From Escherichia coli (GTDB taxonomy: Bacteria; Pseudomonadota; Gammaproteobacteria; Enterobacterales; Enterobacteriaceae), in NCBI RefSeq assembly GCF_003334305.1, contig NZ_QOWS01000033.1: 35,452 bases of DNA; one strand, 5' to 3'. The stretch's first letter is position 1; each line of letters begins with the position of its first letter. The position numbers and the translations under genes are program-made. Positions 7,501 through 25,518 of this stretch are shown here, piece by piece. Below the pieces are notes generated by a model. That model was given only the letters and a program-made list of their open reading frames with translations. It searched no databases and was not told where the DNA came from.

Positions 7501-7633
7501 CATTCAGACGCAGCCAGGACAAAGTGCGCAGGATATTGCGCGGGAGGTGGCCCGCCAGCTTGATGAACGTGAACGCAGGCTGAAGGCAAAAGCCAGGAGT
7601 AACTACAGCGATCAGGGGGGATACGACGCATGA
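4556..7633 (+). CDS. Tail tape measure protein (P2 T-like)
   Basis: 1025-aa ORF with a coiled-coil-like N-terminal region, central hydrophobic Ala/Leu/Gly repeats and the canonical position after E/E'. Confidence 0.85.
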   Translation: MSDNNLRLQVILNAVDKLTRPFRSAQASSRELAAAVKKSRDAIKQLDQAGSSLDSFRKLQAENQKLGDRLNYARQRANLLSQELGAMGPPSQRQVVALGRQRLAVQRLEERQKKLQQQTALVRAELYRAGISAKDDAGATARLARETSRYNQELSKQEARLKRLGEAQRRMNAARASYARSLEVRDRIAGAGATTTAAGLAMGAPVMAAVKSYTSMEDAMKGVAKQVNGLRDDNGNRTARFYEMQDAIKAASEQLPMENGAVDFAALVEGGARMNVANPDDSWEDQKRDLLAFASTAAKAATAFELPADELSESLGKIAQLYKIPTRNIEQLGDALNYLDDNAMSKGADIIDVMQRLGGVADRLDYRKAAALGSTFLTLGAAPEVAASAANAMVRELSIATMQSKSFFEGMNLLKLNPEVIEKQMTKDAMGTIQRVLEKVNALPQDKRLSAMTMLFGKEFGDDAAKLANNLPELQRQLKLTAGNDALGSMQKESDINKDSLSAQWLLVKTGAQNTFSSLGETLRQPLMDILYTVKSVTGALRRWVEANPELTGTLMKASAVVAAVTVGLGTLAVALAAVLGPLAVIRLGFSVLGIKTLSSVTAAVTRTSSALSWLAGAPLALLRRGLASSGNAAGLLTAPLSSLRRTASLTGNVLKTVAGAPVALLRSGLSGLRAVAVMFMNPLAALRGGLAAAGTVLRVLASGPLAMLRVALYAVSGLLGALLSPIGLVVTALAGVALVVWKYWQPITAFLGGVVEGFKAAAGPISAAFEPLKPVFQWIGDKVQALWGWFTDLLTPVKSTSAELQSAAAMGRRFGEALAEGLNMVMHPLDSLKSGVSWLLEKLGIISKEAAKAKLPESVTRQQPATVNADGKVMMPSGGFPSWGYGFAGMYDSGGYIPRGQFGIVGENGPEIVNGPANVTSRRNTAALAAVVAGMMGVAAAPAELPPLHPLALPAKGGEAMVSRAATVPPVQRIEAPMQIIIQTQPGQSAQDIAREVARQLDERERRLKAKARSNYSDQGGYDA

Positions 7634-8115
7634 TGATGGTGCTGGGATTGTACGTGTTTATGCTGCGCACCGTGCCGTATCAGGAGCTGCAGTATCAACG
7701 CAGCTGGCGACATGCGGCAAACAGCCGGGTAAACCGACGTCCGTCCACGCAGTTTCTGGGACCGGACAACGACATGCTGACGCTTTCCGGTGTTCTTATG
7801 CCGGAGATAACAGGTGGCAGGCTGTCGTTGCTGGCACTGGAGCAGATGGCAGAACAGGGGAAAGCATGGCCCCTGATTGAAGGCAGCGGCACGATTTATG
7901 GCATGTATGTGATTGAGGGACTGAATCAGACTAAAACGGAGTTTTTCCGCGACGGTATGCCGCGCCGGATTGAGTTCACCCTGTCGCTCAAACGGGTGGA
8001 TGAATCCCTGTCCGATATGTTCGGTGATCTCAGTGCGCAACTGAATAATCTGCAGGAAACGGCAACGTCTGCCTTAAGCGATATCAGTAAAACGGTGGGA
8101 GGGCTGCTGTCGTGA
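7630..8115 (+). CDS. Tail protein U-like
   Basis: 161-aa ORF whose start overlaps the tape-measure stop; position matches P2 gene U. Confidence 0.75.
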   Translation: MMMVLGLYVFMLRTVPYQELQYQRSWRHAANSRVNRRPSTQFLGPDNDMLTLSGVLMPEITGGRLSLLALEQMAEQGKAWPLIEGSGTIYGMYVIEGLNQTKTEFFRDGMPRRIEFTLSLKRVDESLSDMFGDLSAQLNNLQETATSALSDISKTVGGLLS

Positions 8116-9212
8116 ATTTCAGCTCTGAACTGCTTAACAAAAGCAACAAAACTCCGGCATTCAGCATCAGTATTGAGGGCAGGGATATCACTACTGTGCT
8201 GGATAACCGCCTGATGAGTCTGACTCTGACGGACAATCGGGGCTTTGAAGCAGACCAGCTTGATCTGGAGCTGGACGATGCCGACGGGAAAATCGTGCTG
8301 CCGCGCCGTGGTGCGGTCATTACGCTGGCGCTGGGCTGGAAGGGGCAGCCGCTTTTCCCGAAAGGGGCATTCACGGTGGACGAGATTGAACACACTGGCG
8401 CACCGGACCGCCTGACTATCCGGGCGCGAAGTGCTGATTTTCGGGAAACGCTGAATACCCGCCGTGAAAAATCGTGGCACAAGACCACCATTGGGGAAGT
8501 GGTGAAGGAGATAGCCGCGCGGCACAAGCTGAAGATGGTACTGGGTAAAGACCTGTCGGATAAGCTCGTGGAGCATATAGACCAGACTAATGAGAGTGAC
8601 GGTAGTTTTCTGATGCGGCTGGCGCGCCAGTACGGTGCTATTGCGTCGGTGAAAAATGGCAATCTGTTATTCATCCGGCAGGGACAGGGCAAAAGTGCCA
8701 GCGGTAAACCACTGCCGGTGATCACTATCACACGTAAGGACGGCGACAGTCACCGCTTTACCCTGGCAGATCGCGGAGCCTATACGGGCATAATTGCCAG
8801 CTGGTTGCATACCCGCGAACCCGCGAAGAAAGAAAGCACCACGGTGAAGCGTAAGCGCAGGACTAAGAAGCAGAAGAAAGAGCCGGAAGCGAAGCAGGGC
8901 GATTACCTGGTGGGTACGGATGAAAACGTGCTGGTACTTAATCGCACTTATGCCAACCGGAGCAACGCTGAACGGGCAGCGAAAATGCAGTGGGAACGCC
9001 TGCAACGCGGCGTTGCGTCATTCTCGCTACAACTGGCGGAAGGGCGGGCAGATCTCTACACGGAAATGCCAGTGAAAGTCAGTGGCTTTAAACAGCCGAT
9101 AGATGATGCGGAATGGACCATTACGACTCTGACACATACCGTCAGCCCGGATAATGGTTTTACGACCAGTCTTGAGCTTGAAGTGAAGGTTGATGATCTC
9201 GAAATGGAATGA
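8112..9212 (+). CDS. Tail protein D-like (late tail gene)
   Basis: 366-aa ORF with a GTG start overlapping the U stop; position matches P2 gene D. Confidence 0.75.
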   Translation: MNFSSELLNKSNKTPAFSISIEGRDITTVLDNRLMSLTLTDNRGFEADQLDLELDDADGKIVLPRRGAVITLALGWKGQPLFPKGAFTVDEIEHTGAPDRLTIRARSADFRETLNTRREKSWHKTTIGEVVKEIAARHKLKMVLGKDLSDKLVEHIDQTNESDGSFLMRLARQYGAIASVKNGNLLFIRQGQGKSASGKPLPVITITRKDGDSHRFTLADRGAYTGIIASWLHTREPAKKESTTVKRKRRTKKQKKEPEAKQGDYLVGTDENVLVLNRTYANRSNAERAAKMQWERLQRGVASFSLQLAEGRADLYTEMPVKVSGFKQPIDDAEWTITTLTHTVSPDNGFTTSLELEVKVDDLEME

Positions 9213-9302
9213 TTCTTCACAATGGAGAACTTTTAAGTTTGAAAAATGGAATAATGCGATATCATTATTGTGAATTTAGCAAAAATGGGGAGAACTCGAA
9301 AA

Positions 9303-9521
9303 ATGATGATTTGCCCACTGTGTGGAAGTGCCGCCCATACTCGCAGCAGTTTTCAGGTATCTTCATTGACCAAAGAGCGTTACAACCAGTGCCAGAACAT
9401 TAACTGCAGCCATACTTTTGTTACCCATGAAACTTTTGTTCGTTCGATTGCAACGCCAAAAGAGTCAAATCCGGTTCAGCCGCATCCTCATAAATTTAAA
9501 CAGGTGGGTTTGCCGATTTAA
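9303..9521 (+). CDS. ogr: Ogr/Delta-type zinc-finger late transcription activator
   Basis: CPLCGSAAHTRSS...YNQCQNINCSHTF is a C4 zinc-finger pattern like P2 Ogr; start placed at the Met preceding CPLC, with a GGGAGA Shine-Dalgarno upstream. Confidence 0.75.
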   Translation: MMICPLCGSAAHTRSSFQVSSLTKERYNQCQNINCSHTFVTHETFVRSIATPKESNPVQPHPHKFKQVGLPI

Positions 9522-9585
9522 ATGGCGACATAACTACATGATTTAAAACTATACTTTTCTATAAGTTGAGGTTAAATTAACAATG

Positions 9586-9762
9586 CCTGACGTTAGCGGG
9601 GATTTATCCCCACTCCGTAGATATGTAGTTTGTCGCTTTGCGACTGCGGACCGATTACCTGATTGCCATGTAATCGGACGCCGACTTGTTAAGCTTTCTG
9701 GGCTAACTGGTTGTTATTTTTTATTTAGTTAGGGCCATGCGCTTGCGCTAAGAGACGTCAGG
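9586..9762 (+). ncRNA. Candidate structured non-coding RNA upstream of the reverse transcriptase (retron msr/msd-like or DRT-type ncRNA)
   Basis: Long-range inverted repeat CCTGACGTTAGCG (9586-9598) with CGCTA-AGAG-ACGTCAGG (9746-9762) enclosing hairpins at 9598-9611, 9632-9644 and 9651-9677; no convincing ORF inside. Confidence 0.4.
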
Positions 9763-9782
9763 TATCTATGGAGGAACAAGTT

Positions 9783-9956
9783 ATGGATACAAACGAACTT
9801 GGCTTAGTTAAGGCGCGTGTTGAACTGATCACCGCTATGCTCAAATGCGCAACCGCGTTTGTTGGCTTAGTTGGTGCGGTTTACGCCGTTCTTAACATGG
9901 CCTTCAACTACAACAATTTAACTCATGACAATAGAAGTTCAAAGGTGGGAAGATAA
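9783..9956 (+). CDS. Small hypothetical protein with one hydrophobic helix (possible small effector, or frameshifted RT N-terminus)
   Basis: Only open frame across 9768-9956; GGAGGA Shine-Dalgarno about 7 nt before the ATG at 9783; hydrophobic stretch AFVGLVGAVYAVLNMAF; overlaps the RT start by about 30 nt in another frame. Confidence 0.3.
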   Translation: MDTNELGLVKARVELITAMLKCATAFVGLVGAVYAVLNMAFNYNNLTHDNRSSKVGR

Positions 9957-10698
9957 ATTTGAGATTAAGCCCGGGGTTTGGGTTTATGTCCCAAGCGTTG
10001 AGGCACGTAAAGTCGGAGGGAAGATACTTCAGGCTGTCAGAAACAAGTGGATTCCGCCACTCTATTTTTACCATCTAAGAACTGGTGGGCATCTTAAAGC
10101 TGCCAGATTACACTTAAAAAGTGATTTTTTTGCCGTTGTTGATATTAAACAATTTTTTCAGTCAACGAGCCGTAGTCGTATCACCCGTGATCTAAAGAGC
10201 TACTTCACCTATTCTCAAGCGCGGGAAATCTCAACATTTTCAACTGTAAGAAACTTGTCCCATAGTCCACATAAGCATGTCCTCCCTTTTGGTTTTGTTC
10301 AATCTCCAATACTTGCAACCCTCTGCTTAGATAAAAGTTATTTTGGTAGCTTACTACGCCGATTGAACAAACATCATGATCTCAAGCTAAGTGTGTTTAT
10401 GGATGATGTGATCATCTCGTCAAACGATTTGGCCCAATTACAAGCGGCTTACGACGAAGCACTAGTGGCAATGCGTAAATCTGGTTATCAAGCCAACATG
10501 AGTAAAACTCAGGCACCATCGTCAAAGATTAGCGTGTTTAATTTAACTTTGAGTAAGGGAGTTATGAAAGTCACATCTCAGAAAATGAGTGACTTCCTGA
10601 TTGATTTCTATTCAAGCAATTATGAGCCGCACAGAATAGGGGTCAAAAACTACGTCGAAGCTGTTAATCCAGGGCAAGCGAAACTCTTTAAGTTGTAA
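9925..10698 (+). CDS. Compact reverse transcriptase (retron/Abi/DRT-like RT domain)
   Basis: RT motifs readable in the translation: fingers FEIKPGVWVYVPS, motif A VVDIKQFFQS, motif B LPFGFVQSPILATLCL, catalytic YxDD box FMDD; AT-rich with rare codons (AGA, ATA, CTA). Confidence 0.75.
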   Translation: MTIEVQRWEDKFEIKPGVWVYVPSVEARKVGGKILQAVRNKWIPPLYFYHLRTGGHLKAARLHLKSDFFAVVDIKQFFQSTSRSRITRDLKSYFTYSQAREISTFSTVRNLSHSPHKHVLPFGFVQSPILATLCLDKSYFGSLLRRLNKHHDLKLSVFMDDVIISSNDLAQLQAAYDEALVAMRKSGYQANMSKTQAPSSKISVFNLTLSKGVMKVTSQKMSDFLIDFYSSNYEPHRIGVKNYVEAVNPGQAKLFKL

Positions 10699-10806
10699 TT
10701 GCGATCGCATGTAGTAGCAACTGGGCTTGACTGAATGTCTGCCGCCATTTTGCCGCCACTACTAAAGAAAAAAGGGCTACGCTTTCACGTAACCCCTTGA
10801 TTTATT

Positions 10807-11169
10807 TGGTGGAGCTGGCGGGAGTTGAACCCGCGTCCGAAATTCCTACATCCTCGGTACTACATGCTTAGTCAGTCTTTACATTCGCTTGCCAGCTGCG
10901 GACGGACACGCCACTAACAAACTAGCCTGATTAAGTTTTAACGCTTCAACCCCAGGCAGGGCTTCCACGCGATCTCTTTTGGGTTTGACCTCTCTTGATC
11001 CCCGTCCTAAGAGCGGAGGCTAGGGAGAGAGGGCTCTAAGCAGGTTATTAAGCTGCTAAAGCGTAGTTTTCGTCGTTTGCGACTATTTTTTGCGGCTTTT
11101 TACGAGGCCAACCGCCCCTCGGCATGCACCTTGGGTTTCGCAAATCCCGTCGAATCCAGAATCAGCCCC
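10807..11169 (-). ncRNA. ssrA: tmRNA (SsrA)
   Basis: Reverse complement matches E. coli tmRNA from GGGGCTGATTCTGG (5' end at 11169) to GCTCCACCA (3' end at 10807), including the tag-coding region. Confidence 0.95.
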
Positions 11170-11383
11170 AATGTGTAAAGGTAAGTATACCAGATTTATG
11201 AGCGCCATGACCAGCCTCAATGGCGTTATCGTTAAAGATTTAGCACCCATGTAGCCTGATTTTTATTCGATTAAGCAATGGGATGGCAACATTTGTGTCG
11301 GATGTGATAGCCAATAAGATGTTCATTCGCGCCGCCGGAGAGGGAGGCGCGGTGAGGAACTGGTCAATAATTGGAGTGCAGGT

Positions 11384-11866
11384 TTAACGGTGGGCGTTTT
11401 TCATGATACGTGCTTTATCCACCTGCCATTCGCGTTCTTTGATATCTGAACGTTTATCGTGCTGTTTTTTACCTTTGGCGACGCCGATTTTCACTTTGCA
11501 CCAGGCATTTTTCCAGTACAGGGAGAGCGCCACTACGGTATAGCCTTCTCGATTGACGCGACCGTACAATGAGTCCAGTTCGCGTTGGTTGAGAAGTAAC
11601 TTGCGGGTACGGGTAGGATCGCACACCACATGCGTGGAGGCCACGGCCATTGGCGTGATGTTAGCGCCAAACAGAAATGCCTCTCCGTCACGCAGAAGGA
11701 CGTAGCTGTCGCTGATATTGGCTTTTCCTGCGCGCAGGGATTTAACCTCCCAGCCTTGCAGGGCAAGTCCCGCTTCGAACTCTTCTTCGATAAAGTATTC
11801 GTGACGGGCGCGCTTGTTAAGCGCGATGGTCGCTGAACCAGGTTTATGTGCTTTTTTCTTCGTCAT
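11384..11866 (-). CDS. smpB: SsrA-binding protein SmpB
   Basis: 160-aa translation is the recognisable SmpB sequence; lies directly upstream of ssrA on the same strand. Confidence 0.95.
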
Positions 11867-11997
11867 AAGCGTCGTGAATCATCGGTAATCTGAAATCGAA
11901 AACACCCCATATCAATCCTGCGGGGGACAAGGCTCTATCTTAGCATGAACCCGATGTTACCCAGCGCCGGGATAGCGTTTTTTTTACAGCAGGATAA

Positions 11998-12474
11998 ATG
12001 ATATTATTTGTTGGATTTTTGTTGATGGAAATTGTTATGCCTCAGATTAGCCGGACCGCACTGGTACCCTACAGCGCGGAGCAAATGTATCAGTTAGTGA
12101 ATGACGTTCAGTCTTATCCTCAGTTTTTGCCGGGTTGTACCGGAAGTCGGATTCTGGAGTCCACTCCTGGGCAGATGACTGCGGCGGTAGATGTCTCTAA
12201 GGCTGGGATCAGCAAAACGTTTACTACCCGCAACCAGTTGACCAGTAACCAAAGTATTCTTATGAATCTGGTGGATGGGCCGTTCAAGAAATTGATTGGT
12301 GGATGGAAGTTTACGCCGCTGAGCCAGGAGGCGTGTCGTATCGAGTTTCATCTCGACTTTGAGTTTACCAATAAGTTGATTGAACTCGCCTTTGGTCGCG
12401 TGTTTAAAGAGCTGGCGTCTAATATGGTCCAGGCTTTTACGGTTCGTGCGAAAGAGGTTTACAGTGCCAGGTAA
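11998..12474 (+). CDS. ratA: Ribosome association toxin RatA (YfjG, SRPBCC family)
   Basis: Conserved divergent neighbour of smpB; translation consistent with YfjG; true start may be an internal Met. Confidence 0.8.
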
Positions 12475-25037: not shown

Positions 25038-25403
25038 TTAATTTAATCGTATTGTGCTGGCATTTTCATCAGCCCCTTTTTGCCATACTTCATGCAGTTG
25101 GCTGGCATTTTCAACATTGTTGCAGCTGGCAGGAAAGCTTTTACCGGAAAGTCCCCGGGCATAAGTAAAATCGGTCTGGCAAGTTTTCTTTTGTCCTTCG
25201 GCATATCCTTTAAGGTATAGACCGCGATCCGCCTGTGAATCGCTAAATGCATCGTCATCTTTTATGGCGCTGCCCGATATCGCATCTTCCATACCAACAT
25301 CATACCAGTCGGTGCTGGTCAAGGTTGGCGCGTGAGTATAAGGATCAATCTGACATCCGCTAACCAGTAAAGCCAACAAGGGGGCGATAAACTTTTTCAT
25401 CAT
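25038..25403 (-). CDS. yfiL: Lipoprotein YfiL
   Basis: Signal peptide with lipobox (LVSGC); start placed at the MMKKF Met. Confidence 0.65.
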   Translation of the reverse strand: MMKKFIAPLLALLVSGCQIDPYTHAPTLTSTDWYDVGMEDAISGSAIKDDDAFSDSQADRGLYLKGYAEGQKKTCQTDFTYARGLSGKSFPASCNNVENASQLHEVWQKGADENASTIRLN

Positions 25404-25448
25404 TTCTTTCTCCTTTTTCAAAGCATAGCGGATTGTTTTCAAAGGGAG

Positions 25449-25518
25449 TGTAAACTTATCTATACAGAAGTAAGGGTTGAAATCGCGACTAAATTGCCTG
25501 TGTAAATAAAAATGTACG
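25449..25518. promoter_or_regulatory. TyrR boxes in the aroF promoter region
   Basis: TGTAAA-N6-TATACA at 25449-25466 and TGTAAA-N6-TGTACG at 25501-25518 fit the TGTAAA-N6-TTTACA TyrR consensus, upstream of aroF. Confidence 0.45.

Follow-up and report, generated by a model that had tools for sequence, protein, structure and literature searches.

The stretch of DNA analysed here (the window) comprises 35,452 nucleotides (nt) of the Escherichia coli contig NZ_QOWS01000033.1, from assembly GCF_003334305.1. It harbors a three-part cassette, in which a structured RNA, the gene of a small protein (SP) and the gene of a compact reverse transcriptase (RT) are carried as cargo between the ogr gene and the attachment (att) site of a P2-like Klebsiella prophage. 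The RNA is conserved and tied to the RT gene across many unrelated genomic contexts, and its linkage to the SP–RT pair is obligatory. It is probably a retron-like RNA serving both as msr-msd and as leader of the SP–RT cassette, a 'hybrid' that follows a logic like that of type VI retrons and falls outside the described types. A first-pass annotation, made from the letters of the window, had proposed a non-coding RNA (ncRNA) of retron-like architecture at 9586–9762, upstream of the RT gene. The RNA is not free-standing but the leader of the SP gene, and a helix absent from that annotation, P3, sequesters the Shine-Dalgarno (SD) sequence of SP.

Conservation and covariation of the RNA

The structured 5′ leader of the cassette spans approximately 9583–9785 (+), and its parts are collected in Table 1. 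The inverted repeat (CCTGACGTTAGCG at 9586–9598 and CGCTAAGAGACGTCAGG at 9746–9762) and the three internal hairpins (9598–9611, 9632–9644 and CCGATTAC-11 nt-GTAATCGG at 9651–9677) had been placed exactly by the first-pass annotation, and all three hairpins are present in the minimum-free-energy fold of 9560–9790 (+), which has an energy of −72.8 kcal/mol and a z of −3.2 against dinucleotide shuffles. The minus strand folds about equally well (z = −3.8), which argues against assigning the RNA to the plus strand from energy alone. Because of this, neither strand nor significance is settled by single-sequence folding, and comparative evidence is therefore needed.

A locus scan with one genome per species gave 80 loci, spread over gamma-, beta- and alpha-proteobacteria and a small number of further lineages, and a covariance model (CM), R1, was built from 17 beta- and gamma-proteobacterial loci of other taxa, with the window left out. 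R1 matches the window at 9581–9794 (+) with 28.4 bits (E = 3.6e-7), and it has matches in 44 of 81 sources (gamma- and beta-proteobacteria plus a few more lineages), every one of them on the plus strand and directly upstream of SP–RT. An SP-type open reading frame (ORF) of 39–97 amino acids (aa), usually 40–60, lies immediately upstream of the RT in 43 of the 44 loci with the RNA. In the CM alignment, 94.7% of the structure cells pair, compared with 23–45% when the partners are slid, and the compensatory stem changes that the first-pass annotation had proposed to look for in homologous loci are found among these 44. A second R1 match in the window (25392–25469, minus strand, 13.8 bits, E = 0.006) lies far from any RT and is probably noise.

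The helix that closes the RNA, P1, is of the a1/a2 type recognized in the first-pass annotation, and it is kept by compensatory changes. Both sides have changed in 7 of 8 pairs among the 43 distinct sequences of the CM alignment, and RNAalifold recovered the stem, together with its compensatory changes, from a MAFFT alignment of 27 loci that is blind to structure and in which the upstream sequences were anchored on the invariant TGCGC-N2-4-GCGCT. Duplex energies, which require no alignment, are −13.7 kcal/mol for cognate P1 arms versus −7.9 kcal/mol for permuted ones (0 of 20,000 permutations, z = −11.9). As in retrons, a same-strand ncRNA closed by a1/a2 inverted repeats is thus found next to the RT gene. 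Not all of the long inverted repeat that had been drawn is shared with the relatives: the CCTGACG/CGTCAGG core covaries and is the only conserved part of P1, whereas the additional TTAGCG/CGCTAA pairing is specific to the window. A short direct repeat, UAGG(C), is found inside both P1 arms (9593–9598 and 9748–9753; UUAGC/CUAAG in the window), also in loci L005, L014 and others, and in L005 it reads UAGGCAC at both places; formation of P1 brings the two copies opposite one another at the presumed site of priming.

The layout upstream of SP in the motif-anchored relatives is the same as in the window. P2 (helix 2 of the CM alignment) is paired in 87.9% of its cells, with changes on both sides in 4 of 6 pairs and many G–U pairs, and since G–U pairs are frequent in both P1 and P2, the plus strand is supported. 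P4 is near-invariant in the family, and the window and locus L001 carry a compensated change from A–U to G–C (RNAalifold AU:23, GC:3). The TGCGC..GCGCT motif is invariant in the 27-locus alignment, and so is the UAG that follows the 5′ arm, which is also present in the displayed rows of the CM hits, in agreement with the priming-guanosine context that had been noted after the 5′ repeat by analogy with Ec86. The interval from P4 to P6, which contains P5 and a GTTGGTT motif, is 53–84 nt long in most relatives. P5 is not alignable in sequence yet forms hairpins. The third hairpin of the first-pass annotation is found at its place in the window, in a part of the RNA whose sequence and length vary among relatives; the T-rich tract reported there is present as well, being the window version of the conserved GTTGGTT/TTAGTT motif. 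R1 does not reach the alpha-proteobacterial loci, which by eye carry a diverged version of the same plan. The diverged RNA of L044, L047, L066 and L067, all from alpha-proteobacteria, reads GGCGAUAAC ... CUCUCAGUUGACG ... GGUUGCCGG ... GGAGG-AUG.

Most relatives have a −10-like hexamer 5–7 nt upstream of the 5′ arm, and 9 or more of 12 promoter positions match in 14 of the 44 loci, compared with 1 of 127 control windows. Because these boxes and matches sit just upstream of the arm, they suggest that the transcript would start at the 5′ arm, as in retron msr. A simple sigma-70 consensus scan of the window found no plus-strand promoter.

Table 1. Features of the SP–RT cassette and its leader RNA in the window
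Feature	Coordinates	Strand	Remarks
Putative promoter region	9548–9582	+	−10-like hexamer TAAATT/TTAAAT about 6 nt before the 5′ arm; weak in the window
P1 5′ arm, a2-type repeat, CCTGACG	9586–9592	+	Partner 9756–9762; extendable to 9583–9593 in the window
UAG right after the 5′ arm	9594–9596	+	G9596 is the candidate priming (branching) guanosine
P2 hairpin GGGGA-TTTA-TCCCC	9598–9611	+	In the minimum-free-energy fold; loop and sequence vary, position kept
P3 5′ strand, anti-Shine-Dalgarno, CTCCGTAGATAT	9613–9624	+	Partner 9762–9773; always between P2 and P4
P4 hairpin GTCGC-TTT-GCGAC	9632–9644	+	Family consensus GTCAC-NNN-GTGAY
P5 variable region, candidate msd template	9645–9723	+	CCGATTAC/GTAATCGG hairpin (9651–9677) and a second hairpin; template role putative
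TTTAGTTAGG, window form of the single-stranded GTTGGTT motif	9724–9733	+	Conserved alignment columns
P6 mini-hairpin in TGCGC-TT-GCGCT	9738–9749	+	Invariant in 27 of 27 sequences; helix 100% paired in the CM alignment
P1 3′ arm, a1-type repeat, CGTCAGG	9756–9762	+	Extendable to 9755–9765 in the window
P3 3′ strand, GTATCTATGGAG	9762–9773	+	Contains the SP Shine-Dalgarno; shares 4 nt with the extended P1 3′ arm
SP, 57-aa small protein	9783–9956	+	Presumed effector/toxin; conserved ORF next to the RT
Compact RT, 257 aa, catalytic FMDD	9925–10698	+	Pfam RVT_1, E = 2.4e-21

Two crossing helices upstream of the SP start codon

P3 is a second covarying helix, in which a 5′ strand of 9–12 nt is complementary to the strand right after the P1 3′ arm. 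In the window its pairing buries the SP SD sequence, GGAGG at 9770–9774, which precedes the start ATG at 9783. P3 is found in almost all loci despite very different sequences, and its 3′ strand ends 7–12 nt before the SP start codon in most of them. The alignment-free duplex energy is −12.4 kcal/mol for cognate strands and −7.6 kcal/mol for permuted ones (0 of 20,000, z = −11.2). In a mini-alignment of 30 loci, with the P3 register fitted per sequence, changes on both sides are seen in 9 of 9 P3 pairs and 7 of 8 P1 pairs, and 92.5% of the cells pair, compared with 36–48% after sliding (0 of 500 shuffles). A covariance model, R2, in which P3 was treated as a nested helix, kept a sequence-based register, mis-paired P3 and missed the window, and it was replaced.

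The strands of the two helices follow one another in the order P1a–P3a–P1b–P3b, so that P1 and P3 cross and cannot be nested. The linker from P1b to P3b measures 0–5 nt; in the window the two strands overlap (−4 nt), and P2 fills the gap between P1a and P3a almost without linker. Constrained folds give an energy difference, E(P3 state) − E(P1 state), of +0.7 ± 3.1 kcal/mol across 37 loci; for the window itself, the P3 state comes to −68.2 kcal/mol and the P1 state to −68.5 kcal/mol. Because the helices cross, their 3′ strands are contiguous or overlapping and the modelled folds have roughly the same energy, the most likely behavior of the leader is a toggle between two states, one in which the SD is hidden and the priming stem open, and another in which the priming stem is formed and the SD exposed. 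Such a toggle would couple reverse transcription to SP translation.

The small protein and the reverse transcriptase

The N-terminal stretch of SP is charged; the protein also has a long hydrophobic helix and carries the conserved x-N-Y motif (..VLNMAFNY..). In most loci its ORF adjoins the RT match or overlaps with it, and in nearly every locus it ends at or inside the RT start. No match to SP was found in PADLOC, NCBIfam or PHROGs, no helix-turn-helix (HTH) ORF is seen in any of the 44 loci, and no other gene lies between SP and RT.

A set of 72 close-to-moderate homologues of the RT was found, each about 255 aa long, and an exhaustive phmmer search of 1.84 billion representatives yielded 158 clusters at E<=1e-30 and no more than 519 at E<=1e-3, almost all of them 245–265 aa in length. 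The RT belongs to a discrete family of compact RTs. The window RT cluster at 90% identity includes two members that are found on 963 and 318 contigs, mostly of Klebsiella; it also holds Salmonella Typhi CT18 and E. coli records, and many fragments of 71–193 aa.

The AlphaFold2 model of the RT has a pLDDT of 95. Its top 17 fold matches in the PDB are all retron RTs (Ec86, Ec83, Eco7/Ec78, Eco8 and Eco2, with TMq of 0.69–0.77), and Ec86 (7v9x) is matched with E = 1.7e-15 and a TMq of 0.73. G2L4, DRT9 and group II intron RTs rank below the retron RTs in this search, DRT9 appearing from rank 19.

Proposed mechanism and alternative explanations

In the mechanism proposed here, the RT would bind the leader RNA and would use as primer the 2′-OH of G9596, next to P1, a role assigned by analogy with retron msr (PMC8632793). 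Copying would proceed through the segment immediately upstream of the 3′ arm, first P6 and then P5, and yield a short single-stranded DNA resembling the multicopy single-stranded DNA (msDNA) of retrons. P3 would keep SP untranslated, and P1 formation, or the use of the RNA as template, would free the SD. SP, presumed by analogy with type VI retrons to be a toxic effector, would then act in an abortive-infection defense carried by the prophage. A more specific version of this proposal is tentative. It holds that the cassette is a new retron type, made of two genes, SP and RT, and having its own RT clade, in which the priming stem and the SD-hiding helix are mutually exclusive, forming a bistable RNA whose RT-competent fold, or whose reverse transcription, would license toxin translation. 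If this were true, the bistable switch would be a minimal, protein-regulator-free version of the type VI logic in which 'msDNA turns toxin on'.

Several observations weigh against a retron-like role of the RNA. The window RT and nine family members score 40–78 bits on the PADLOC retron RT models (VI, I-B, II-A, IX), and no retron model is consistently the best across the family. The 'VTG' signature in RT motif 7 is a feature of retron RTs (PMC8632793), and where retron RTs carry VTG this family has (V/A)FN, with F205 and N206 invariant in 32 sequences; the equivalence of VFN and VTG was judged by eye, and MAFFT put the motifs in different columns. By its predicted fold, the RT is nearest to retron RTs, and by sequence it appears outside every described retron type. 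In that sense, the msr-msd look proposed in the first-pass annotation holds for the structured RNA, its a1/a2 stem and the RT fold, and does not extend to the RT sequence, which lacks VTG and scores low on the retron hidden Markov models (HMMs). Four alpha-proteobacterial loci (L044, L047, L066 and L067) have UAA in place of UAG, no single G is shared by all loci, and the identity of the priming nucleotide is thereby in question. The promoter match of the window is weak (7 of 12), the P3 register of the 30-locus mini-alignment was adjusted to each sequence, and P1 and P3 may form together as a compact pseudoknot. Finally, the RT start codon is located 32 nt inside the SP ORF (9925–9956) and has no recognizable SD. 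Because of this position, RT synthesis may depend on the SD hidden by P3, its translation being coupled to that of SP and hence gated by P3, and a shared SD would therefore complicate a simple order of 'msDNA first, toxin second'.

It could be argued that the RNA is only a cis-acting translational regulator of SP–RT, which folds back as in hok and is not reverse-transcribed, the RT acting on another substrate or without a template. The hiding of the SD by P3 in nearly all loci, the isoenergetic P1 and P3 folds, the absence of VTG, the poor retron HMM scores and the lack of a universal G after P1 are all in keeping with this explanation, which is nevertheless considered unlikely. A plain SD-masking leader needs neither an a1/a2-type stem with an adjacent invariant UAG, nor the invariant TGCGC..GCGCT and GTCAC..GTGAY hairpins, nor a variable long hairpin at the msd position, and the RT fold is closest to that of retron RTs, which copy a template. 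It is improbable that the RNA is a scaffold or template of the DRT type, yielding a rolling-circle concatemeric ORF as in DRT2 or a homopolymer as in DRT9, and no branched msDNA. An ncRNA upstream of a single small RT and the presence of DRT9 RTs among the fold matches would suit such a system, as would a plus frame (frame 0) that crosses the RNA in the window without stops for 48 codons (9586–9729). This stretch, however, does not exceed the length expected from shuffles and shows no conservation among the relatives. The first-pass annotation had raised the DRT2-type possibility of a frame staying open across a head-to-tail junction, which the loci do not bear out: open runs are no longer than in shuffles in 37 loci and only 4 of 37 inter-arm regions stay open when circularised, in a crude test that assumes the template boundaries at the inter-arm region. 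Moreover, the UG/DRT models (UG33, 33 bits; UG17, 45 bits; Drt3a, 43 bits) score below the retron models, and retron RTs outrank both DRT9 and G2L4 in the fold search.

The cassette could also be a plain type VI retron from which the HTH gene has been lost. The order of ncRNA, SP and RT matches, the ribosome-binding site (RBS) is masked, RT_VI ranks first among the PADLOC models for the window RT, and the HTH gene is missing in about 22% of the catalogued type VI entries (present in about 78%). This explanation is nonetheless very improbable. The window RT scores 63 bits on RT_VI, compared with 260 bits for gp44 of Burkholderia phage KS5 (GU911303; PMC3091744), which was taken as the type VI positive control, and the two proteins share 24% identity over 169 aa; in addition, RT_VI is not the best model for other family members. 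The HTH gene is present in 0 of 44 loci, SP is shorter (usually 40–60 aa, versus 75–79 aa), and R1 finds nothing above 5.7 bits in the KS5 type VI locus, a single locus. Six accessions of the family were not found in the published type IV/V/VI RT tree, a weak test, as such trees use representative sequences. There is practically no likelihood, on the other hand, that the inverted repeat arose by chance as a palindrome or belongs to a prophage att site or a terminator, without relation to the RT; the att-site and terminator alternatives had been named by the first-pass annotation itself. The location of the repeat between ogr and the prophage end and the equally good folding of the minus strand would be compatible with such an origin, but the att core is found elsewhere (~10734–10806), the element travels with SP–RT in non-prophage contexts of several bacterial classes, and its stems covary. 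The att-site or terminator reading is thus ruled out by the linkage to SP–RT in 44 loci, the covariation and the position of the att core.

Comparison with known systems

The proposed retron-like leader is most readily compared with type VI retrons such as Retron-Vpa2, Retron-Sen3 and Retron-Eco12, whose order is ncRNA–SP–HTH–RT (10.1101/2025.10.22.683967; 10.64898/2026.04.27.721009). In Retron-Vpa2, a single 'hybrid' RNA holds the msr-msd together with a toxic SP whose translation is repressed, and accumulation of msDNA is required for SP to be translated (10.1101/2025.10.22.683967). In Retron-Sen3, the SP RBS lies in the basal stem and control is post-translational, via the HTH antitoxin. 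In the KS5 locus (35144–36443, L081), gp44, annotated as 'reverse transcriptase', and gp45, annotated as 'transcriptional regulator', are a textbook type VI pair of RT and HTH, gp45 scoring 117 bits on HTH_VI, and a candidate SP ORF is located upstream. The SP–RT cassette resembles type VI retrons in having a structured RNA, a small-protein gene and an RT in order on one strand, in the sequestration of the small-protein RBS in RNA structure (here by P3), in the hydrophobic C-terminal part of the small protein and in terminal inverted repeats resembling a1/a2; the genuine example, KS5, a P2-like phage, is likewise prophage-borne. The two differ in that the Cro/C1 HTH gene is absent from the cassette in the 44 loci and that the RTs of the window family have about 255 aa, compared with 339 aa for KS5 gp44 and 279 positions in the RT_VI model, with VFN where gp44 has VTG. 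SP has the x-NY motif, whereas the small proteins of type VI consist of three helices. The RT clade and, as judged from the KS5 locus, the RNA family also differ from those of type VI. In the cassette, the RNA is closed upstream of SP by the a1/a2 stem, whereas in type VI that stem wraps the SP coding region, and the SD is masked here by a helix that competes with a1/a2.

Retron-Eco1/Ec86 has in common with the cassette an ncRNA on the same strand and directly upstream of the RT, a terminal inverted repeat, a UAG-type guanosine right after the 5′ arm, and small hairpins followed by a longer, variable one, and its RT (7v9x) is the closest in fold. By contrast, the RNA of the cassette runs on into a presumed effector ORF, the window RT lacks VTG and scores low on all retron HMMs, and an extra SD-masking helix crosses the a1/a2 stem. 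The type IV Retron-Eco6/Ec48, which has a two-transmembrane (2TM) effector, couples a retron RT to a small membrane-type effector, an arrangement that the cassette would share; judged by the Mestre 2020 description, its RT clade is not the same, and the presumed effector of the cassette is one short hydrophobic peptide encoded upstream, in the RNA leader.

Masking of an SD by long-range pairing is also found in the hok/sok type I toxin mRNAs, where the SD of a small hydrophobic toxin-like ORF is hidden in this way and the alternative folds decide translation. Unlike in hok/sok, the cassette has no antisense RNA partner, and its masking strand lies inside an RT-associated, retron-like RNA.

No description of the SP–RT family was found in the full-text literature searched, a limited collection, and the cassette seems to be related to known retrons without having been described itself. 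If confirmed, it would represent a further retron type with the smallest RT of the class (~255 aa) and without accessory regulator. As the PADLOC scores are weak and ambiguous, its retron and DRT models probably miss or misfile this family, which is common in clinical species, as indicated by the Klebsiella contigs and the copies in Salmonella Typhi CT18 and E. coli. The competing helices P1 and P3 would connect reverse transcription with toxin translation in a concrete physical way, a link left open by the type VI papers, and a compact RT with an RNA of ~180 nt may be of interest for retron-based genome editing.

Prophage setting of the cassette

The left third of the window is the end of a P2-like prophage, with tail genes at 7630–9212 and an Ogr-type regulator at 9303–9521, both identified by PHROG matches. 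Over 9522–10804, the sequence matches the ends of Klebsiella phage records (Kp4845-2 among others) with 99.6% identity, and an att core of about 70 nt at 10734–10806 matches the attP regions of P2-like phages, including Fels-2 and SopE-phi. The prophage end abuts the tmRNA gene ssrA (10807–11169, minus strand) and smpB; the insertion point of the prophage is the 3′ end of ssrA. Between ogr and att, the cargo segment contains two plus-strand ORFs, one of 62/57 aa (9768/9783–9956) and that of the 257-aa RT. An Rfam scan of 9000–12000 at E<=1 returned only tmRNA and permuted-tmRNA models, all within 10629–11182, and none in 9586–9762.

P2-like prophages may repeatedly carry the cassette as cargo at their gpD/ogr–att end, since a gpD-type gene adjoins it in three further loci, and most other SP–RT loci sit in different contexts. 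These three loci, L001, L035 and L036, from Klebsiella michiganensis, Halomonas and Salinicola, have the SP–RT cassette beside a P2 gpD-type tail gene, the gpD match of L036 lying ~1.7 kb upstream of the cassette. A terminator-like hairpin (10798–10771, minus strand) is found just beyond the 3′ end of the tmRNA, on the phage side of the junction.

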